Assembly: GCA_965112155.1 (NCBI GenBank)
Contig: OZ218101.1
Source: Podarcis liolepis
Taxonomy: Eukaryota
DNA length: 64,000 nucleotides
Direction: 5' to 3' (one strand)
In this document: in pieces, positions 2,423-64,000 of the stretch
Position numbering within the stretch: the first letter of the stretch is position 1
Layout: every line of letters begins with the position of its first letter
Made by a program: the position numbers and the translations under genes
Notes under the pieces: generated by a model
Told to the model about the DNA's origin: nothing
Seen by the model: the letters and a program-made list of their open reading frames with translations, nothing else
Database searches by the model: none

Positions 2423-5400
2423 GCAGCCTATCCACATAGACATCCATTCATATGCTGTCAGGGTACAACTACGGTTTTCCACACACTTCTGTTACAGCAG
2501 AAGAGCACCTAGTTAAATAGTGACTTCATGTAACATGCAAAAGCTAGTACCTTAACACAAGTCACACCATGGAAAAGTCCATAAAATCAGTATTTATCAT
2601 CCCCAAACCCGCTGAGAAACAAGCAACTGAGGTTTACTACTGCAAACAGCCCAAGGATGATCATATTCAGACTTTTCTACTGTTGTATTGTCCCTTCTTC
2701 CTTTAATGATCTGAATCTTATCATGAATGTTTAGATACATGCCTAGTGCTCCCCCTATTGGCTTTTCAGCAGAAGCAAGGCAGACATGGGTACATATAAA
2801 ACTATTTTGGTGTAGCCCTCCAACTCAAAATAAGCAGAGGGAAAAGACCTGAAAAAAGAGGGGGTCTTGTGAGACAACCCAAATGGAAACAGTCCAAACA
2901 TTCATGCAGACGGAGAGGCCACTGCCGTTACAGATCATATTCTTTTTAAAGAAATAAGGAAGAATTATGTTTGCATTATGTTGTATCTTTCTTATGAGAA
3001 AGCATAATTATCTCTGTTAAAAGAGAGAACAGAAGCAATAAGAAACAGATTTACATATACACAGGCTTTACCGCTACTGTTATTTCAATACCTCTTAGAT
3101 AAGTAGCATTCAAACATTTTCACAGGGCATCTAGAGGGATCCGCTGTGTTTTCAGTTTGTTCAAATACCGGCTCATCATCTTCATGCTTCCTTTTTCCAG
3201 TAGTAATTTTTTCTTCTAGAACAGAAGAAAGAAAAAGAAAGAGACAAAACAACAACAGAATGGAATGAATGGAGTGCAAGCCCAAAGGCTACAGTCCTGG
3301 AAAGTGGAACCTTTCCATCTAAACCTAACAGCCCTGCCCCACAAATGGCTGTGTGATTTGGAAGGTGGAGGTATGTGGAGAGTGAGAAGGTTAGGGTTAA
3401 GCATTCCCTCCCCTGCTGCCACCCCACACATTATCCCCCCCCCCCATAAATCGGTAACTCTAACTTTGTCTTGAAGGGGTGAAGCTGCAGACAGAAGGCC
3501 AGAGGATGGATCCCAAAGCAGTGTGGGCTGGTGGTACCCCACCCCTGCCACAAGGAATCATAGGTACATCTCCTCAGCTGGTAAGTAGTGACTGCACAGC
3601 CCTCAGTTTACAGCAGCTCTTTCTCAATTCTATCCAAAGAATGGGGAAGAGCGAGGTGTTCTATGTGATACATGATGGGGTAGAACATAAAAGAGAAAAC
3701 ACAATGCAATGAACCTGCCTTGAATAAAATCCATAACATCTGTCCTTTAAGTGTGGCTGTAGTTTCTTTGCCACAGCTTTGTGGGAGTGCCACATGGTTT
3801 GGCTTCAAGCACATGGTTTGGCTTCAAGGAGGCACAACTGAGAAAGACACCTGGTCAGAAACTCTGGAGGCGCAGTGCTAACCAGTGGAGACAATACAGA
3901 GCTGAGTGTGCAATCTGCCCTCTTTCCAGAGGCAGACCTCTCCCCTTTAGCTAGAGGTCAGCCACTGCCTCAGGTCTGTCTGAGAGAGATGGCGCTGTTG
4001 CTGTTGATTTCTTACCCACCCTCCACCACAGGGTCCCAGGGCAGGTTGCGGAAATTTAGAAGCCTGTAGAAATTTACAGAGCCAAGTAATTAGCCCAGTG
4101 GCCCTTTCGATTGGGCCAAATATGGATCCTGCCACCATATTCACTTCAGAATGTTATGGTACCTTCGTTATCCGTTCCACATAAGGAGGAAACCTGGTAT
4201 CTCAGACAAGCTTTGCTATCCATGGTTAGAGGATTTTTCTTCCAGTGCCTATAAACGGTGCCAAAGGAAAGTCTTAAGTGCTGCTCCACTGTTTTCAGGC
4301 CAAAATACTTGGTGTTGAAGTAGAACAGTGTATTTAGAAGAGCAACTGGAGAGTGGGATCCTAACTGCTTTATCCTCCACAGATAGTCTTCTTCAACCCG
4401 AGAAAAAATTGAACCTGGTAAGAGAAAGGCGGGGGGAGGAGATGAGTATTCTGTAAATGAACCTATGGAATTTAACAAAAGAAAAATGTGCTAAACTGAA
4501 TTATCAGTTATATCTCTCAGAAATATCTGCTACAAATTAAAAATTCACAGTCCCACCTCTTCAGTCTAACCAATCAATTGAAGTTTACATATATCTACGA
4601 TTGACAATCAGCTTCATGGAACTTAAAACACGGAGTTTTAATTGCACTGAACTTGCTTAAGGAGCATGAATTCAGAAAGAAAAGAGGATAATGACCAAGA
4701 CAAGAACAGTTACCGTCTGGAAGTATGCTTGGTTGCCAGCATCTGAGTATTTTATTTATTTCATGCTCAAATGTTTGATAGTCTGGATCCAAGAAGATAT
4801 TATCCTTTCTATTGCTTCCGTTCAAATACTACAGGAAAAGAGGAAAAGCAAAATATTTAGTAGACCAAGACAAAAAACCAGAAGCAAAAACTATTCCTTT
4901 TATATACATATGAAAGCAGGCCATTTATTCATTTTAAGTTTTACAAACCACTCTCCCCCCAAAAATGAATTCCAGGGTAGTACACAAAGTAATTTAAAAT
5001 TACAGAAAATGATATGGTTAAAAGTGTTTGAAGGTTTGAATATTTTTATATATTTTAAGCTGCTGTATTTTATGCTTCTTGCTTATGATAGCATCTCAGT
5101 TTAACACATTTGTCTCAGTTTAGTAATTAACAGGCTTGTCAAATATTGGGTTGGAATAAAAGCTTCCATTTCCTTCCATTCACAGAGGTTCTTCCAGGAA
5201 TGCAAAGGCCTTTGAACTAAGAGAGGAGATATTAACCTCTGGACTTCTGTTACTGGGTGCTAGGAGCATGCTTTCTGTGACTAGAATTGCACTCATGGAA
5301 CCTTTGGATACAACAACCAATTTATTCTACAGACCAAGACACCTAGTAGCATTAGTTACAAAAAACATATTTAATTGTGGGGGGCGTGGAGAGAGACCCA

Positions 5401-36800: not shown

Positions 36801-39800
36801 TACATTAAATACAATTTGACTGTAAAATATATGACTGGCAAAATATCGGTAAGTATTCTGTACATGACTGAGTATTAAAAAACCAGAATGAAATAAAATG
36901 TGTTTGGTAAACTTTCACATTTAAGGCAAAATATATTCTGTTTTACAATATATTCAATCACCACAGAAATTTAGTAACTCTCAAAAAGTTAATTTTCAAA
37001 GATTGGAAACTAATACCCTCTTCTAAGAAAAATACCATTTTCCATAGAACTAATATTCACAGAATAAGCTGCACTATGGGCAAATGTGAGGAAAAATGAG
37101 TTTTACATGTATATTAAAAGCACAAAGAGCAAAATGCACCAAATTTCCTCCTTGCCTCAGACACTGACAAAGTTGAACCACGCATTACAGTACATGCATT
37201 ATTTCTATCTTTGCAAAGTAGGAAAATAACAGACTAATGGTAACGACAAGGATAGAGACTACCACAAGTCGTAACTAAAAAGAATCAAATAATACTTAAT
37301 GTAAGAAATTTCAAGTCTGTGAAGGATGCAGAAATGCAAACTAACCAACCTGGAAAAGCTAGGTAAATAATTTTCATTTCCTAGCTATCATATGAGAACT
37401 TGTATGCTGCCAGAAGACTGAAGAGCATGACAAGTGGCTCAAGTGAAAATTCTGCCCACATAAGAAATATTGGTGAGAAATATTACCTAAGTAATTTCCT
37501 GAGAAACTTAAATATTATATTAGTGTATAAATGAGGGATGGGAGAAACAAACAAACCTCTGTTAGTTTTCCACAAATAGTGCATCTAGACTTATTTAAGA
37601 TTCCTTTTGAGGGATTCTGTTTGTCTTCATAGAAGGACAAGCATGACGTACTGCAAAACTCCTGGAAGGACTCACTTGAATCAACCTGAGCAACAATGGT
37701 ACCTTTCATTGTTGTTATGTCTCTGAAAGATAAGAAGGGAAAGTCCTCTAAATATTAGGAGCCACCATAAAGTACAATAGTCACAGATAGTACAAGATTT
37801 AAAAGTCTGAACAAAAAACTGGGAAGAAGAAGAAGAGTTTCGATTTGATATTCCGCTTTATCGCTACCCGAAGGAGTCTCAAACCAGCTAACGTTCTCCT
37901 TTCCCTTCCTCCCCCACAACAAACACTCTGTGAGGTGAGTGGGGCTGAGAGACTTCAGAGAAGTGTGACTAGCCCAAGGTCACCCAGCAGCATGTGGAGG
38001 AGCGGAGATGCGAACCTGGTTCACCAGATTACAAATCTACCGCTCTTAACTACACCACACTGGGAACAATTTGGTATTGTCAAGAGCCCCCTCCCTCCCA
38101 CCACCCAAAATGGGAGGGGGCATCCCACTGGCTGCATTTGAACATCATGCTAAAAATGGTTTAATGTGACACACACAAGAAGGAACAAGCTGCGCAACCA
38201 AAGACAATGCTTTCACTTCTTCAGTTAAACATAACTTTGGCGTCATCCAAATCCCTGCTTGTGGTTAGCATTAACTATGCTTAAATTTTAAAAAGCCAGC
38301 TTCAGAAAATGTGGTTTGAAGTTAGTTTTTAAAAAGTCAACCACAGTTTGTGTTAACCAGTTTTTTATGGCTGACCTGACAGATTGCAATTAAAAGTGGA
38401 ATCCTTTAAGTTGCTCTTCTAGGCTGAGAGGGAGAATAGGGAGGAGCATGCAAGCCCAAGGCTTACTTCAGCTAGTTCCTGCTTGTTAAACAAGTATTCC
38501 CCAACCTGGTGCCCTCCAGATGTTTTTGACAACAACTTCCGTCACCCTGATCATGGACCATGCTGGCTGGAGCAGACAGTCCCTGTACATAACTGCTGGA
38601 GGGTACCACATTGGCTATCCCTGCTGTAGACTAAGGAGCAGTGCAAATAATGGTTTGCATATCAAAAGCCAGTCTTTTCTCCTTGAGTACAGTGGTACCT
38701 CGCAAGACGAATGCCTCGCAAGACAAAAAACTCGCTAGACGAAAGGTTTTTTTGTTTTTTGAGCTGCTTCGCAAGACGATTTTCCCTATGGGCTTGCTTC
38801 GCAAGACGGAAACGTCTTGCAAGTTTGTTTCCCTTTTCTTAACACCGCTAATACAGTTGCGACTTGACTTCTAGGAGCAACTCATAGAACGCGGTGTGGT
38901 AGCCTTTTTTGAGGTTTTTAAAGACTTTGGTGATTTTTGAAGCTTTTCCAAAACTTTCCCGACACCGTGCTTCGCAAGACGAAAAAATCGCAAGACGACA
39001 AAACTCGCGGAACGAATTAATTTTGTCTTGCGAGGCACCACTGTATCAGGAGATAGGTACACCCCTTCTCATCTTGCAGTGAAAACATAAAAATTCCTTC
39101 CAGTAGCACCTTAAAGACCAACTAAGTTAGTTCTTGGTATGAGCTTTCGTGTGCATGCACACTTCTTCAGATACACTGCTGAAGAAGTGTGCTGAAGAAG
39201 TGCTGAAGAAGTGTGCATGCACACGAAAGCTCATACCAAGAACTAACTTAGTTGGTCTTTAAGGTGCAACTGGAAGGAATTTTTTTATTTTGACTATGGC
39301 AGACCAACACGGCTACCTATCTGTAAGTGAAAACATATTTTCATATATCATGGACACCTAATGCAAACTATGGAGAACAAATCCTGTTTCTTTGTAAATT
39401 AGAGTGTGAAAACGTAGTTCAATCTGTTTATGAAATTATTTTGCCATAGATGCAACTGTAACGTAAAGCCATGGCTTGTGGCAGGAAAGAGGGATCAATT
39501 GCTTTGGGGAGCTGGGAGTGGAGTCTCCCATTTCACAAACCACAATTTAAAAGGAATTAGTCTTATATCTACATCAGTGCTCAATAGTGGTGAAAATGCA
39601 ATGAAGAAAATGGAAAAGTTTATTTGTAAAAGTATTATTTGGAGACACGTGGAATACCATGAGAAGCAAAAATATCAATTATAAACAGAAACACCATAAA
39701 GCAAACGTTTGTTGTTGTTTAACAAAAGGGAATGGGAGCACATTTAATTCTTTTGGGCTGTAGCTGCTCATTGCTCACTAGATACTCACAAACCTGAGGT

Positions 39801-42800
39801 CTCTTGTACTGAAGTATGCATAAGCTAAGCCCTATTAACTTGAAGTGATTTTACTCTAATAAAACAGGAAGACAGCTACCTAGCTGCAGACAGCCAGTGG
39901 ATCAACAGAGTGTTACAATTCTTCTCTCTCAGTAAACCTGACAGCTTCAAAAGCAAAGTTATACATTTTTAAATTACAAGTTGATGTCAAAATCAATTTA
40001 TCTAACTGTCCAGCATGTCTCGATGTAGCAGTTAATATTGTTTAGATGGGTAACTTAAAAGGGTTTCAAGAATATTAACACACTGGATTTAATCGTGTTT
40101 CATTAACAAAGCAAAGCAGGACTTGGCACCACCCACAGACCTCACTGCTAGCACTCAACAAATGTGTACAAATTAGGCCAAAATGCTCCACCCATGCTTC
40201 CCACAAGTCTCAGCTTAATTTTATATTTTGCTTTTTCAGAACTGTTTATACACCCACATCATTAGTGCCAAACAGCATTCTTCATGGATTCCAGAAGAGG
40301 AAACAGTGAACAAAACTAAGATGCTAAGTAGTACGAAATTTAACTAGGTTTGTTCCTCTTTCCAAGTCTCAGTATTGGCATAGGATTATATTATACAGAG
40401 AAAAACTAAACATGCGTGTGATAAGGAGAAAACTTTTTATACAAACCACCTTCATTTTAGTTATTTTATATTTTTTCATGTTAATTGTTTAGAGGTTTTT
40501 GCTGATTAAGCGTTATATAAATTTTGTTAGCTAAATAATGATCGATCCATGGTTAGCTCAATGTGAATGGGCACTCAAGCCAACAATTTCCCATCTCCCA
40601 CTATGAGCAAATCATGGTTTGTGCTTAACTATAGTTTGCTTTATCAAGAAGACCCTTCAAAATGGGCTAATGATTTGGTCATTACATCTGAACCAACTCA
40701 ATGCCTATCAGTTTTTATGACAAGTATGAACAAGAATAAGTTGAAAGAGGGTAGCTCATTCATGTCCTGGATAAACTGCTTTGAGGACGGGTTTTTTTAT
40801 ATAAAAAACCAACTATCAAGCAGTGTATATATTTTATGAAATAAATAAATGAATGAATAAAAATAATATATTTTACTGAGTTCTTGGAACGTTGAACAGG
40901 AATACTGATCACATTGGCAAGGATCAAGCAGTAAGATCTATCCCTTACTTTTTGCACATAACACAGAGTTTCTTTGGAGCTGGTTTATGCGAGAATGATG
41001 AAAGGCAGGTAGTGGAACAAAAAAGGTGAACTGATCCTTTCCGCTGATATGCAGTCTGGCCCTTCTGCAAAGGTTTCTTGCAGTTAGCACATGTGACTTT
41101 GACCTGCTTAGAAGGCTGCTGTTGTGTAGGAGGCTGGAAGACTTGTTTTGGGAGGGATGCCACCGGTGACAGAGAATCCACACCTGGTTGTTTCTGATTT
41201 CTTGGAAATGAAGCTGACTGAGATATCCAGGAATCTTAAAGAGACAAAATAGATAAAGTTAAAATTTAAAAATTACCTCTCAATATGACAAGCAATTTGA
41301 CAGTGAAGGAGAATATTCTGTTCCCAGTGTAGGTAAAAGAGACGCACTCAGTTTTTCCAAAAGGCTAAATGATAAGTGTTAGTAACATAAAAAGATGTTG
41401 GGATACAACAATGCCCATACTGCATAATAAATATTTGCAGATCACCACCTGCTAGTCATGGGAATAGCAATAGAATGCCCTGTCTTCAAAATTCCAACAC
41501 AATGCTCAGGAGAATTCCGTGAACGTGAAGACATTATCCTACTCTGTGATAACTGACTTTGAAGATGGAACAGAGGGGGTGGGGAAGACGATATCAGAAT
41601 TGGGGAAACCTTTTTCAGCATTCACATCTGAGGACCAAATTCTAGCGGTAGGCAGGGCCACACTGAATGGATCAACAAATGTACAGTACACTGGTTTCTA
41701 CACACACTCACACACCTCTCTATCCTCCATCAGAAAACTATTATCAGAGTTCAAGAGCATATTCTAGCCAGGCACATGCACTTGGGTTACAAAGCAGGGT
41801 CAGTGCGGGTTATAGCTTGAGGAGTGTTTCCGGCGCCAGATGGAAAGGCCTGGAGAGCCACATTCAGCACCCAGGCCTCAGGTTGCCCACTCAAGATTTA
41901 AAACAAATTTGCTGTATGCCTCACTTTCAAGGAGGAAGTAAAAAGCCCTTCCACTGTTCGGATTCTGTTCTTAGACCAAGGTAAAGTTCTCAAACCGGGA
42001 CACTACTTCTGGTTTTGTGGTGTTCGTAAACCGAATCATTTGTAAACAGGACTGTTCTTAAACCGAGATACCTATGTTTTAATTACATATTTAGGTTGTC
42101 ACTCTAATGATTATGCATACATACACACGTACATAATTTTATTTGTATGCCACTCAAGGCGGCTTGCAACATGAAGGAAATATCTAATTACAACATAACA
42201 AAAATGGTCATAAACATCAAAGCATACACAACCAAATCGAACAATTTCCACACAAAACATATGATCTAATTTTTATGGTATTTTGTGTTTGAACTTTGTA
42301 TACAATCATAATATTTTATACAGTGCTATAGAAATTTCAATAATTTGCCATTTAGAAATGGAGATGATAAAATAACTAATTGGTAAATGTTAAGCTGTGC
42401 CATGATTTGAGTAACTGGACTTCACTATCTTAAGGAACTGAAACTTCTCATATACAAATAGATCAGTACAGTGGTACCTCGCAAGACGAATGCCTCACAA
42501 GACGAAAAACGTGCAAGACGAAAGAGTTTTCCGTTTTTTGAGTCATTCCGCAAGATGAATTTCCCTATGGGCTTGCTTTGCAAGACGAAACATCTTGCGA
42601 GTTCTTGCGAGTTTGTTTCCTTTTTCTTAAAGCCGCTAATAGCCGTGCTTCGCAAGAAGAAAAAACCGCAAGACGAAGAGACTCGCAGAACGGATTAATT
42701 TCGTCTTGCGAGGCACCACTGTATTTGTTTAATAACACACTTCAGCACTTAACTTTGGACATTATCATAAAACCCTAACTCATCTCCTCTACCATTAACC

Positions 42801-57300: not shown

Positions 57301-60300
57301 GAATATAAGTATCTATCTTAAACATCAGATTATTCTGTCCATTTTGACTTGCTGCCATTTCTCCAGGGTCTCAGGGCAGACATCACCTGCTACCTGACTC
57401 TTTTTAATCAAAGATGCCAGAGACAGAACTTGGGTACAAAGCATGAGCCATACCACTGACCTATGCATGAAGTCCTTGGAGTAAGAGTAAGATAAGAATT
57501 AAATAAATAATGGTTTTCACTGGCAAAACCTAGTTACTTCATTGACAGAAAAAGCACACAAAACATTTGTACTACTCCATTACATTTGTACTCTCAATAC
57601 AACAAGAAAACTTGTATGATCTCTGGTATCACTGTAGTCCTAGCCAATCATTTTAGAAATATTGGCAATTATTCACTCCCAAGTTTAAATTTGATTACCT
57701 AATGATACACAAGGCAAAATCAGCCGAAGGTGGCCCTTTTAAAAAGTGTTACCTCCAGGCAAATAGATGTAGTTATCTTGTGACATGGAAGTTATCAACC
57801 AAGATGTCTCACTTCCAACATAACCCTGAACACCTCCATAAATCAGTTTTTCTCTCTCTCCCTTGTTTATATGCCACTTTCCAACAAGTAGTTCTCAAAG
57901 TGGTTTACATATTAAAAGATGTGTGGCAAACATGTTTCAGTAAAGCTATTTAGTCTTCACAGGGATGACTGTCATCCATGCAACTTTCAGAAACTGTAAC
58001 TTAATAGATTCCAATAGACATCTAGACGCATGCAGCAAATGTCAGTTCCACATAAAATGTCTACAAAGAAATGCCACTGCATTTACTTTTAATTCCCTAT
58101 CTCTAAACTCCAAATGTTATACTAGAAATGGGCCTAAAATTGAGTGGTGAAAAAAGCAGATTTTTCCCAAGAGCTACTTTTATATACACAAAGTTATTCA
58201 TCTTAAGCATTTCTATTCACTTCATTCAGTGCCTTATCCAACTATTAATTTTATGTAGCCAGCTCTTTATACTACTACTCCTGTTGGGAATTTCCCACTA
58301 CACAGTAATGAAGTATCTTAAAACTACCAAAAACGTGTTTTGTGGGGCCATCTATTACATTTCAAATGAAGAGTCTAGTAAAATAAAATGTACCAAAATA
58401 ATTAAGTCGCAAGACACTTACAGTGTAAGAACTTCTGTACTACACAAGTAACTGTCAATGCAGAAGACTTGAATTCAACTGGCCTTTCTGTCACAGAATA
58501 AGTATAGTGTTGCAACCTTAATGTCCCAGTACCAATCACTTACTTGTTTGCCCCAGTGACACTTAGGACCAGCTTTCATGAGACAGTCTATACTTGATTT
58601 GCTCAGTTAAATTGGTGGCGTATGCATAACTGCACCAATTCATGCAACACCATTTATACTTTAAAATTTACCAATAACGATGTCTGTATCATCAACACCT
58701 ATGTGAAGATACACCAATGGCTCTTCTATGCAAACCTATCACAAGATGATCACATGGGAGCCACCTCAGATATGAATGGGTCCCATATGCCAAATGGCAT
58801 TGACTCAAGTCTTGCCTGTTAGAATTTTTAGTCCTTTAGTATATGTTCTCCTATTTTATTGTTCTGAAGTAAGCAGTGTGTCGACTACACCTCTCATCTA
58901 AACATGTCTTACTTGGAAATACATCCAAGTTATTCTTTTTCAATATAGCCTATTTTTAAGCACGCATGCTTAGATCCCCAGTTTAAAGAAGTCTATGTAC
59001 TATGGTTTAATTCTGCAGCTGAAACCCTTCAGAGCTGACCAAACCTTCTCTCTGAAGACTTGTACAAAACAAATTTCCATTCACCTTCAATTCTGGTATT
59101 TCTTTTATGCTGCTTGGGAAGTATTTATTAACCATTTATAATTTGTTCAAGTCATCCTTTAGTATTTATGATCCTGCTGGAAGTTGTCAGAAATCACAAA
59201 TCAGGAAAATAGTTGGGGGTCTGCAACCCTGTTTTCCATTACAATTTAATACACATTCATTTTCACATTTATGTGATTTTTTCACAGGTTATTTGAGCAA
59301 TTCTACTAAAGTCTGCACAAAGCTATTTACCATACAATCTTCCTCATGCTCTTGAAAAACTTGAGAAATTAGAATTGTGAGTCAATCTGCTGGGAGGTTT
59401 TTGCCTGCACCCTTAAAGTTTAAGGCTTAAACCAGTCGCTCTAAAGACAGCTTAAAAATCAGCACCCCCCTCATCCTCTGAGTAAACTAACACCTTGCAT
59501 AAAGTATACTCCTCCTGATCTTTCTCCCTAATTTCTATGTGAATAATGGACAAGGAATGCTGATCTTGGATCATGCAATACCCATGTTTGCCTCCTGCAA
59601 ACTAAAAAGTGAAATGCTACCAATGGATTCCTGCAGCGGCCTCTAGTAAGAGACCCTTAACAAGCAACTATTGATCACTTTCAGTCTCCAGATGATGGGT
59701 CACGGCATAAACTGCTCTATTAGGTTTGCCCTCACAGAGCTACTTCGCCACTTAGTGTAAAGAGCTGAAATTACTAAGGGGAAGAGAAGGGGGCTAACTG
59801 CAGCCATCTCAGAATGTAAGAAAAGGATGGTTCTTCGCTGACTTTGCAATAGCCTTGAAAAAATTCACTCAAACGAGACACAACCGATGGGATTCTCAGA
59901 TAGCATCAGGATTTAAAGGGAAATGGGGCAAATAATACGTTTGTCCTTAGCAGAGAAACACATGAAAATGTCCATTGTGTCCAACTGTATCTTCTTCCCC
60001 ACCTCCATGCCTAAGCAAATCCGCCTGAACGAGAAATAAAACGTGTGATCCAGAACACACTTCGCTCAGGACTGGATTATTTTAAGTCGTCTCCCTCTCG
60101 CCGGCCAGAGAAGTCAGGTAAGGTTGCAGGGATTCGGAATTGCGAGGGAATTAATTCGAAATCTGGTTAAATGTGCGCTTTAATATACGCTCCAAAACTC
60201 TAGAGGGCACTCGAAAGATACCCTCTCCATTCCCCTCCCCCGCGCGGCCGAGCCGGGTAAGGCGAGCGGCAGGAGCCCGTCGTCTGCTTGCGGGTGTTGG

Positions 60301-60540
60301 TATTGCAGGAGCGATGTCTGCAGCAGAGCCCACCCCGGGGGGAGGAGTCGCCTCACGGCCATTACCGGGGCTTTGCTCCAGGGCAGCAGCTGCTGCACCC
60401 AACAACCCCCCCTTTTACCCTGGAAGCACCTCCTCTTAACCCCCCCACCCATCCGCTCCTCGTGCCAAAAAAAAGGGGGGAGAAGGATGATCTACCTCCT
60501 GCTCCTCCCCAAGGCAGAAAAACATATAAATAGCACTCAC

Positions 60541-60599
60541 AATGGAGCTCCTTCTCCTTGCGAGGCTCTTGCCAAGGCTGCACCAAACTGGCCTGGAGC
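60541..60599 (-). other. ZMYM2: Probable non-coding 5' UTR exon of ZMYM2 (59 nt)
   Basis: Strong acceptor CCTCTTCTCCCTAG|G and consensus donor |GTGAGT inside the CpG island. Confidence 0.55.
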
Positions 60600-61807
60600 C
60601 TAGGGAGAAGAGGTGCTGGTGGAGCGTGAGGGTGGGGTGGGGGGTTGAACCGGGTTTTAATCGAGGTAGTGGGCGCGCCTCCTCATCTTCCCCTCCAGGA
60701 GACGCCCTTCCTCCTGGGCAAAGAAACGGGTTGGCAGCAGGGCCCTCCACTTTGAATCCTTCAGCCCCTCCAGCACAGCCCCCTTCTCCCAGTGGGATAC
60801 AAACCTATTGCCCCAGAGACAGGCTCCACCCGCCCCAGGGCCTCCCCCACAGCCCCACCTCGGGTGGGGGGTCGGCCCCGTCCCCCAGCGCTGTTCCCCA
60901 AGGGCGCCCAGCCTTGGGAGCCTTTGCTGGAGGGCAGCGGGGGGGGGGTTAGTTTGGACAGGCGCGGAGGTGGGAGAGGAGGAGGCAATAGCGAAGACTT
61001 TCTCCCCACCCACCCAACACATACACAAAGCCGCCTCTTCTTTCCCCCTTCAGAGCTCTCTCTGGGGACCGAGTGTTAAGTCGATCGAACACCCTCCAAC
61101 AAACACACACACGAACACACGCGCATATACACATACACACAAAAACAACAACCCGCGCGCGCGCCTCCAGCGCCGAGATCTGCCCTGGCGCCCGTCCCTG
61201 CCAATTGCCCCGGGTGTCGGGTTTGGCCCCCTGCAGTCGGCCGGCAGCACTGCCGCCTCCATTCGGCCGCCATTAAGGAGACCCAGCCAAACAATACGGG
61301 AGGGGAGCGCGAGAGAAAGCGGGAGCTGGGGGGGGGGGGGAGAGGAGGATACGCGGAGCGCAGCGCTGGGCGCAAAGAAGGGCGCCGCGAAAGGGGGGAG
61401 GGGAGCCGGCGGGGCGGAGGGCATTGAAAACAAAACCGCGGGCGAGGCGGTTGGAAACGAAGCCGTGATAAAATGGATCCTTCCCTTCTTCCCCCCCCCC
61501 GCCCCGCTCCCCACGCCGCCACCCCAGATACCCCCCAAGGCAGCCCCCTCCGCATTTCTGCCCTCAGCGCCCCTCAGTGAGGGGGGCTTCCTCCTGTCCG
61601 TCGCCCCAACCGCCTCCCTCACCCTCCCCCCGCCCCCAATCCCTGCTGGCGTGAGGCGAGAGCGACACGCAGCGGGGCATTTAGCCCGGGTTGCTGCGAG
61701 GCACGGCTGGGCTGCTCCAATCCCCACCCTGAAGGGGCAAGCTGGGCTCCAGCCAGCCACCCACCCGGCTCTCCTCTACCTCAGCCGCTTCCTCTCACGG
61801 CCCTCAC

Positions 61808-61950
61808 CAGTCTCGGGGGGGAGAAGGAGGTCGCCCCGGCAGCGGCGGCGGGTCACACGCACCCTCCGCGGCTCCGCCAACGCTTCCTCAACTCTAACTC
61901 GGTCCAGTCCCGGGCTAAGCGCTGCTGCTTGGCGGAGGGGAGGAGCAGGG
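61808..61950 (-). other. ZMYM2: Probable non-coding first exon of ZMYM2 (TSS approximate)
   Basis: GC-rich segment ending at donor CTG|GTGAGG (61807), immediately downstream of two CCAAT boxes. Confidence 0.5.
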
Positions 61951-62110
61951 ACCAACCCCACCAGCCGAGCTCGGGGAAAGGCCGCCTCGTGCGCCCGCTT
62001 ATTGGCCTTCCCAGGAAGAGGGCTTCGTTGCCTGCAGAACCCATTGGAGCGGCTTCCCGCCTATCAGCGTCCCCGCCGCAGGTGGTTGGGCCGAGGCCCT
62101 GTCAATCCGA
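61930..62110 (-). promoter_or_regulatory. Proximal promoter with tandem CCAAT (NF-Y) boxes and a GC box
   Basis: ATTGG at 62001-62005 and 62043-62047 (CCAAT on minus); GGCGGAGGGG at 61931-61940; no TATA box seen. Confidence 0.55.
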
Positions 62111-64000
62111 TTCTCACTCACGCCTACGGTCCCTCCCTCTTTGGTTCCATCAGGTTAAACCCGAATCGCATTGCCCACCACCAACAGCTGCAGCACCTCT
62201 GCCTTTCTCCTGGTGGATGGGCGGGTTTGGGGCCCCAGAGGTTGCTGCTGCTGCCGGATACTTTCCTGCAGAAGTTTGTGCTCTTTTTCCCCCTCCATGA
62301 AAGCGGGATGGCATCCCTTTTACTCCGCATGACATTTGCCAGGGAGGGAGGTGGTGTGTTTAACCCATTAATTTGCCTTCCACGGTCCCTCTGGGCAATA
62401 ATTGCAGCGGAGACGTGTGGCTTCGGGTGTGAACACCCTGTTCCGTGGGGAGGTGATGGTTGCCACGCTTCGTCCACATTTTTAGGCGCGCGCGCGCCCC
62501 CACAGCAGGGCTGGGAAACCTGGATCCATTTCCATAAGGGGGCAGAGTAATGGAAACAGTCTCCCAGTCTCCAAGCTCTTTCCCAAGGGCAAAGATCCCT
62601 GTCTCCATTGAGGAACAACCCCCCTTTTTCCCCCTCCCCCTGCCTACTCCGGAGAAAGAAAGCTGTGTCCCTTGCAACTGCCAGCACGGCTCCTGGTGGT
62701 GGTAGTGGTGGTTGGTAATGGTGGTGACGTCCTCCATTTTGTCGGAAGCTGCTGCAGGCAGGGAACTTGGGACCACTTCAGACCAACATGGGGCTCTATG
62801 AGGTGCCTGGTTTCAGAGCCTCTCGCCTCAGGGGCACAGCAAATCGCGGGGGGGGGGAGAACCTCTGGCAATGCCCTAAAAGGAACAAATCGAACCCAGA
62901 GCCGCCAAGGCGGCAAAGCACCGAGAACCACGCTCCCCACCCTCCCTCAGCCAAAATGGAGGATGCGCACTTCCCTTGCGCGGTTGGTTCCCCGTTCCCC
63001 AGCCATGGGATTGACGCCCGCTTCTTCGAGGACGGGGGCGTGCTCAGTCTTCTGCCTGGTTGGTTAACCCACCGACTACCCCGTGGGCTGTCCCTCTCTC
63101 CTCGACAAAAACGGGGAGAAAGAGGCGGGAAACAACGCCACACAGTCTTCTCCACCTTGCAGCGATTCCACAAACGTACACGCAGCAGCACGGTATTTTA
63201 TTCCCTGGAGAAAGGCTTATTATGTACGGGGGGAAAGGGAGCGGGCAAGAGCTGTTGGCCCCATTTCTGTCTCAGATATGCAAGAGCTTCTCGCGATGCC
63301 AAGTCCCTGGGTAACTTGCGCGGGAGCTCAGTTCGAAGAGTTTTAAGTTCGCTCGGTTGCCCTCGGTGGCTAATTTCCCTGCGCCGCAGACGCGAGCATT
63401 CTGAACGCGGCGCTGTCGCTGTACCATATCTAGTTCCCTCCTGCCACCGGCCCTAAACAGAGACGCAGGCAACGGCCAACAGGTCTAGCCAAATGCGTAT
63501 GTGAAACTATTAATAGGATGCTGCCGATTTAATGGGAAATGCGAAAGCTTGCATTTCTAGGTGGGCAAACAACGTCGCAGAAAGTCTATAAACTCTAATG
63601 GATAGTGAAGGGGAGAACTTAATTTTTCACTTGATGGCCTATATTGAAAGGCTAGACAAAGATTATCTGCTTTGATAACTGCATTTCCTGTTACATTATT
63701 TGCAGTTGGAGTTTGATAGTGGAGACAGAAAAGGAAGAAGTTTTGTTGGTTTAGTCATTAACCGCAGCATCTTTCAGGACTTATGTTGTATTGTGTGGGG
63801 GTTTTTTTAAGACTGAACATTTCCATTGCTTTCTCCATATTAATAGGAATCTAAATACTGTACTCTGAAATCTGAAAACCTTGAGTTTTATTTAAGGGTC
63901 ATTACTTGGGATTCAGAGGCACTTCTGAAGAAACATGAGTAGGATTCCACAATTTAAAGAAATGGTTCCCAAACATTTTTGGGCCACCGCTCCCTTGGTT

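Follow-up and report, generated by a model that had tools for sequence, protein, structure and literature searches.

In a window of 64,000 nucleotides from Podarcis liolepis (assembly GCA_965112155.1, contig OZ218101.1), a hammerhead ribozyme motif in an intron of ZMYM2 was traced with high confidence to a Penelope-like element (PLE) of the Neptune type. The insertion that carries it is a head-to-head one of 236 bp, flanked by a 12-bp duplication; the motif sits in the short, inverted arm, and in the ZMYM2 pre-mRNA it is very probably locked in a predicted 93-bp hairpin and left uncut. The insertion is an ordinary, recent transposon scar, and its motif a member of the known kind of minimal hammerheads (min-HHR).

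The letters of the minus strand from 39174 to 39137, read back directly, gave the layout that a first-pass annotation of this DNA had proposed: a 4-bp stem I, CUGAAGA with an extra A, a 5-bp stem II with a 4-nt loop, GAAA and a palindromic AGCU. C17 falls on 39141, as required for the cut predicted there. The motif thus has the CUGANGA and GAAA boxes, a UH cleavage site and helices I and II of a min-HHR, and in addition the base after position 9, the G10.1-C11.1 pair and the palindromic 15.2-16.2 described in the main text of PMC4209133. A minimal-hammerhead descriptor matched the 64-kb window once on both strands, at this motif, and any match at all was obtained in only one of 100 dinucleotide-preserving shuffles. 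Rfam hammerhead families were absent from the 19 matches found between 37000 and 41000 (E ≤ 10). The top matches there were hairpins of the microRNA-precursor type, which we rejected as real family members since they lie below the gathering scores (63 bits against a cut-off of 90) and reflect hairpin shape only. Judged by its letters, the motif is a genuine minimal type-I hammerhead, cleavage itself being a prediction.

Stem II and its loop (39149-39162) form a perfect 14-nt palindrome, of which a loop variant is present in some genomic copies. Two free 38-mers are predicted to dimerise via this palindrome (-30.6 kcal/mol) and not via AGCU, which could confound in vitro dimer tests.

The placement of the motif on the sense strand of a ZMYM2 intron, between coding exons 2 and 3, was borne out by mapping the Podarcis muralis ZMYM2 protein by tblastn. 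The protein matched the minus strand at 21 exon-like places, and ZMYM2 of this species was the best match of the large exon at 51526-50753. The numbering counts the coding exons mapped; upstream non-coding or short exons lie outside the mapping. Upstream of the ZMYM2 coding exons, the region 60001-64000 is GC-rich (0.64 and 0.53 versus about 0.39 elsewhere) and likely a CpG-island promoter. At the low-coordinate end, a plus-strand open frame (4146-4490) has a ZMYM-like C-terminal sequence, yet the tblastn rows at 4433-4122 and beyond are in minus frames, a discrepancy in strand and gene identity of the exons in this area that leaves the intron studied here unaffected.

The insertion and its element family

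The hammerhead forms half of a 93-nt inverted repeat, overlooked in the first-pass annotation, whose arms are 96% complementary. Along the plus strand, the insertion consists of a 12-bp duplication, the inverted arm, short tandem fragments of the core start, the direct arm and the identical, perfectly preserved 12 bp (Table 1).

Table 1. Features of the hammerhead insertion and of the flanking ZMYM2 exons.
Feature	Position	Strand	Evidence or remark
ZMYM2 coding exon downstream of the intron (third mapped)	37554..37724	-	tblastn, residues 354-410, 96.5%
Left target-site duplication, 12 bp	39078..39089	.	
Inverted short arm, tail-less, made of pLTR that begins 4 bases ahead of stem I and stops within the T-rich tract preceding the start codon	39090..39178	-	
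Minimal type-I hammerhead motif, predicted cleavage between 39141 and 39140	39137..39174	-	sequence, descriptor, folding, genome copies
Junction, made of short tandem repeats from the start of the hammerhead core	39177..39202	+	first two bases assignable to junction or inverted arm
Direct long arm, pLTR from hammerhead C3 through the element ATG (39296-39298), plus 30-nt tail	39203..39325	+	
Right target-site duplication, 12 bp	39326..39337	.	same as left
ZMYM2 coding exon upstream of the intron (second mapped)	40948..41235	-	tblastn, residues 259-354, 100%

The inverted arm, which begins at offset -4 from stem I, is identical to a natural full-length copy of the element at 87 of 87 positions (39178-39092); the direct arm is 98.3% identical to such a copy over 120 columns, and the two arms agree with each other at 80 of 81. 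This identity indicates that the insertion is very young. In the long arm the element reads in sense on the plus strand, and the hammerhead on the sense strand of ZMYM2 therefore belongs to the by-product arm. The plus-strand copy had been described as having lost stem I pairing; the 5' strand of stem I is indeed lost there, by truncation at C3 rather than by point mutation. The insertion has the inverted truncated arm, the tail on one arm and the target-site duplication of a PLE insertion unit, and inverted 5'-truncated copies with a one-sided tail of 30-40 bp are PLE hallmarks (PMC8557442). The target duplication at 39078-39089 resembles the element's own continuation past the inverted arm in 9 of 12 bases, as expected if the second DNA end was primed by microhomology on the U-rich tract.

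Another element, of 358 bp (38688-39045), with 24-bp terminal inverted repeats and internal repeats, lies 33 bp from the Penelope insertion. In the genome, 40 of 40 scored matches, among 2,960 candidates, were 97-100% identical; it looks like a young MITE, with a resemblance that may point to a Tc1/mariner-type origin. Sequencing runs (DNA-type or unlabelled) of five organisms contained 0.61-0.71 of the words of 38950-39500, a measure of word content only that is uninformative on the presence of the insertion, expression or RNA ends.

A count over the 1.57-Gb genome, which the first-pass annotation had called for, gave 9,879 occurrences of the exact 38-mer, against none in a reversed control. 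The core pattern has 14,638 copies and a 21-mer downstream of the cleavage site 17,426; the 100 core matches listed first are all nearly identical to one another and represent one family. With so many exact copies, the intact core reflects youth, not conservation. A protein search with a fragment of the element ORF gave 114 scored matches, stop-free and 98-100% identical, several of them in open frames of 926 codons. All five stretches fetched (two of them overlapping) carried the exact 38-mer beside such frames; they contain partial tandems in which an ORF of 910 amino acids has the exact motif on either side. According to Pfam, this single ORF encodes a reverse transcriptase (RT) followed by a C-terminal GIY-YIG domain, and the linker between RT and endonuclease (EN) reads C-x4-C-xx-C in the translations, which fits the CX2-5CxxC pattern in PMC8557442 that is shared with Nematis. 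The Penelope origin proposed for the motif was thus confirmed by the same 38-mer in the pLTR of full-length elements, and the family is a Neptune-type PLE as assigned by motif, not by tree. In the Penelope literature, Podarcis was not named among the matches listed.

Head-to-head insertions are common in this family, with 34 rows among 90 loci. Duplications of at least 10 nt (up to one mismatch) flank 31 of these 34, compared to 19 of 500 random controls, in a set of which 19 rows come from loci chosen for likeness to the window copy, four share near-identical flanks and one is spurious. These four insertions (contig C4, 72.90-72.99 Mb) point to a local segmental or tandem duplication. Counted from the ATG, the ends lie at about -10 to +2 in the short arms and at about +26 to +40 in the long arms, positions blurred by alignment overrun. 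They match both the one-sided 30-40-bp PLE tail (PMC8557442) and the two internal RT start sites of an Anolis element (PMC11167929).

The anatomy, the family, its copy number and the transcription order, with the complementary arm first, are observed, and we infer a two-primer origin from the end positions. The element endonuclease would make a staggered cut of about 12 bp, and reverse transcription of element RNA would lengthen both DNA ends, starting at two internal points some 30-40 nt apart, as demonstrated in vitro for the Anolis element (PMC11167929). Both cDNAs would reach the likely 5' end of the RNA at the edge of stem I and then be joined head to head. When ZMYM2 is transcribed, the hammerhead leaving the polymerase would zip onto the arm made earlier, so that the core would never form, and the intron would be spliced out carrying an inert double-stranded hairpin.

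Folding of the motif in the ZMYM2 transcript

ZMYM2 is read from high to low coordinates, and the complement of the direct arm is therefore transcribed before the hammerhead. This arm is predicted to pair with 34 of the 38 motif bases, covering the whole catalytic core and the cleavage site. A region of 286 nt folds into one hairpin (-169.2 kcal/mol, z -22.6), and none of 200 shuffles was as stable. The predicted cost of forcing the hammerhead fold rises from 1.3 kcal/mol in the isolated 38-mer to 5.9 in the 66-mer 39120-39185, 14.7 when only the junction repeats are added and 57.9 when both arms are present, the last value being the same in a context of 701 nt; in intact elements it is 5.2-5.8 kcal/mol (four sites, three loci, three flank sizes). 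In context, the pair probabilities of stems I and II are about zero and the mean unpaired probability of the core is 0.02; when folding of the growing transcript was followed, the zipper was present once about 20 nt of the motif had emerged. By these equilibrium predictions, which are made without proteins, editing or helicases, the hammerhead fold is inaccessible in the ZMYM2 transcript. The proposal of a potentially self-cleaving RNA made by ZMYM2 transcription is not supported, given this order of synthesis and this penalty. The suggested partner in trans could offer only the 4-bp AGCU duplex, predicted at -2.5 kcal/mol. Cutting of the ZMYM2 RNA thus appears unlikely on the folding model, even with a partner. 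The construct suggested for in vitro cleavage (39120-39185) lacks the locking arm and, by prediction, would misfold on its own. That minimal hammerheads need a dimer, as the first-pass annotation also noted, agrees with the main text of PMC4209133, where single ones showed no cleavage and dimers low cleavage in vitro.

Of the 30 exact copies that come first on contig C1, which represent 28 insertions, 12 were locked in the same way (31-69 kcal/mol) and 18 unlocked (1.5-7.6), scored within 500 nt upstream and 120 nt downstream of each copy.

Long near-perfect duplexes are substrates of ADAR and Dicer. The insertion might therefore matter as double-stranded RNA, with the 93-bp hairpin being edited by ADAR, cut by Drosha or Dicer to small RNAs against the element family, or slightly changing ZMYM2 splicing. 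We regard this as rather unlikely for the window copy. The Rfam microRNA-precursor models do match the shape of the hairpin, under their gathering scores, and the 12 locked copies among the 30 sampled lie in similar hairpins, but the Rfam matches testify to shape only, and both flanking exons are more than 1.3 kb away from the insertion.

Far less probable is that the ZMYM2 pre-mRNA is cut at 39141/39140 by AGCU pairing in trans with a second hammerhead RNA, perhaps aided by a PLE protein. The core on the transcribed strand is intact, potential partner copies number in the thousands, and the Anolis PLE hammerhead, which is dispensable for insertion in vitro, cuts once, and only when, the PLE protein is added (PMC11167929). 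Against this stand the penalty of 57.9 kcal/mol compared to the 2.5 kcal/mol of the trans duplex, the synthesis of the locking arm ahead of the hammerhead, the genomic arms, none of which begins at the cleavage site (0 of 98 resolved), and the Anolis RNA-seq data, with no reads ending at the cleavage site there (PMC11167929). A PLE protein could alter folding, though the unwinding of about 80 bp far exceeds what that study shows. If trans cutting were nevertheless true, it would be of importance, making conditional cleavage targets of thousands of lizard introns; the window copy is among the worst candidates for it, and the 18 unlocked exact copies of the 30 would be better tests.

A domesticated, conserved intronic ribozyme, as in amniote RECK, CTCL or DTNB introns (PMC6155905), is hardly credible despite the intronic site in a conserved gene, since 100% identity to full-length copies and a perfect target duplication mark a very recent insertion and the motif, with no stable helix III, no loop-loop features and no Rfam hammerhead match, was rejected as a canonical or RECK-type hammerhead.

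As a finding on ZMYM2, this copy carries little weight, being a routine transposon scar. Its lesson is that ribozyme motifs need to be folded in their transcript context.

5' ends of the arms and the proposed start of the element transcript

The 5' ends were mapped by gapped alignment of the first 100 arms on contig C1 that hold the 21-mer downstream of the cleavage site; this set does not require the ribozyme to be present and samples one end of one contig. Two arms were unresolved and ten extend past 300 nt. Of the 98 resolved arms, 45 start between -7 and +5, counted from the first base of stem I, and -2 is the commonest start. With 88 breakpoints in range, this corresponds to p 3e-40 under a uniform distribution, for an interval chosen after an earlier end mapping had been seen. 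Starts at the cleavage site (+34) were absent from the 98 resolved arms, two of which begin within 31-37. A TATA-like box begins at -33, 30 bases ahead of a pyrimidine-A step at -3, which is the canonical TATA-initiator spacing, and the start of the window's inverted arm at -4 fits the same hot spot. These positions suggest that the element RNA begins near stem I, so that the ribozyme opens the element's own transcript, and that the insertions derive from uncut RNA, of which the short arms would be complete copies.

We tentatively go one step further, to a reading that we consider possible rather than probable. The hammerhead would be the first 40 bases of a capped element mRNA, with the TATA-like box at -30 and an initiator-like start 2-3 bases before stem I, and the thousands of short insertions would be complete copies running from the internal priming site to the cap, which would explain why the ribozyme is the point at which the arms pivot. 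Self-cleavage, located 63 nt ahead of the AUG, would then decap the mRNA and act as an off switch, not as a step of transposition. The pLTR of Drosophila Penelope contains an internal promoter that lacks a TATA box (PMC2377424). A search of the open-access literature found no paper joining Penelope-like, TATA, transcription start, hammerhead and truncation.

Two other accounts of the 5' ends were set aside. A copied cap had been considered from a recurring G before C3 in look-alike copies, which is a query bias, as no arm starts at C3 in the unbiased set. The hot spot looks like a splice acceptor, and in Drosophila Penelope helix I marks the end of the intron (PMC4209133). A spliced leader is disfavoured, as the 14 arms starting at -2 share upstream only a single T (12 of 14). 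This T stands where the intact element has A, and is possibly an untemplated base added at the RNA 5' end.

The family is useful in that it is young and homogeneous, includes full-length members that are intact, and preserves a record of its RNA ends in some 17,000 arms. The role of the PLE hammerhead thereby becomes testable from genome data combined with 5'-end sequencing. If the proposed transcript start is true, the news lies in the element family and not in the ZMYM2 copy.

Comparison with known systems

Compared to the metazoan PLE min-HHRs (Cervera and de la Pena, 2014; PMC4209133), the lizard motif has the same type-I layout, with a short helix I, an extra base between 9 and 10.1, the G10.1-C11.1 pair, a palindromic 15.2-16.2 and no loop 3. 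Those min-HHRs, like the lizard family, occur widely as single truncated copies and as opposite-strand pairs; they are reported in fish Neptune elements, with similar motifs in turtle and snakes, and the dimer model is summarised in a review (PMC6765202). The differences are a stem II of 5 bp versus 7-8 in the Schistosoma families and the marked homogeneity of the lizard family. A lacertid family or locking in a hairpin is not mentioned in the main text of PMC4209133; the supplements of the papers cited may list lacertid families.

With EN+ PLEs and Neptune (Craig et al., 2021; PMC8557442), the family shares the RT with C-terminal GIY-YIG and the cysteine linker, and with their insertion units the partial tandems, the inverted truncated arm and the tail on one arm. 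The window insertion is such a unit cut down to about 90 plus 120 bases, its ORF being reduced to the 30-nt tail.

Poseidon PAc of Anolis carolinensis (Frangieh et al., 2024; PMC11167929) is likewise a lizard PLE with a pLTR hammerhead. In that study, both DNA strands are cut and extended, two internal RT starts define the tail and the main template is uncleaved RNA, all of which resembles our reading. PAc belongs to another clade; its ORF starts inside the ribozyme and its RT start lies 111-118 nt into the ORF, whereas in the present family the ATG follows C17 by 63 nt and the long arms reach about 26-40 nt into the ORF.

Tandem retrozymes are reported to be under-represented in frog introns (preprint 10.64898/2026.07.22.740005), a result that concerns tandem, dimer-competent arrays and not locked single copies. 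Like the RECK, CTCL and DTNB hammerheads of amniotes (PMC6155905), the window motif is of type I and lies in an intron of a vertebrate gene; those ribozymes are conserved across species and canonical-like, whereas the window motif is a recent, minimal form with thousands of copies and is predicted to be sequestered.
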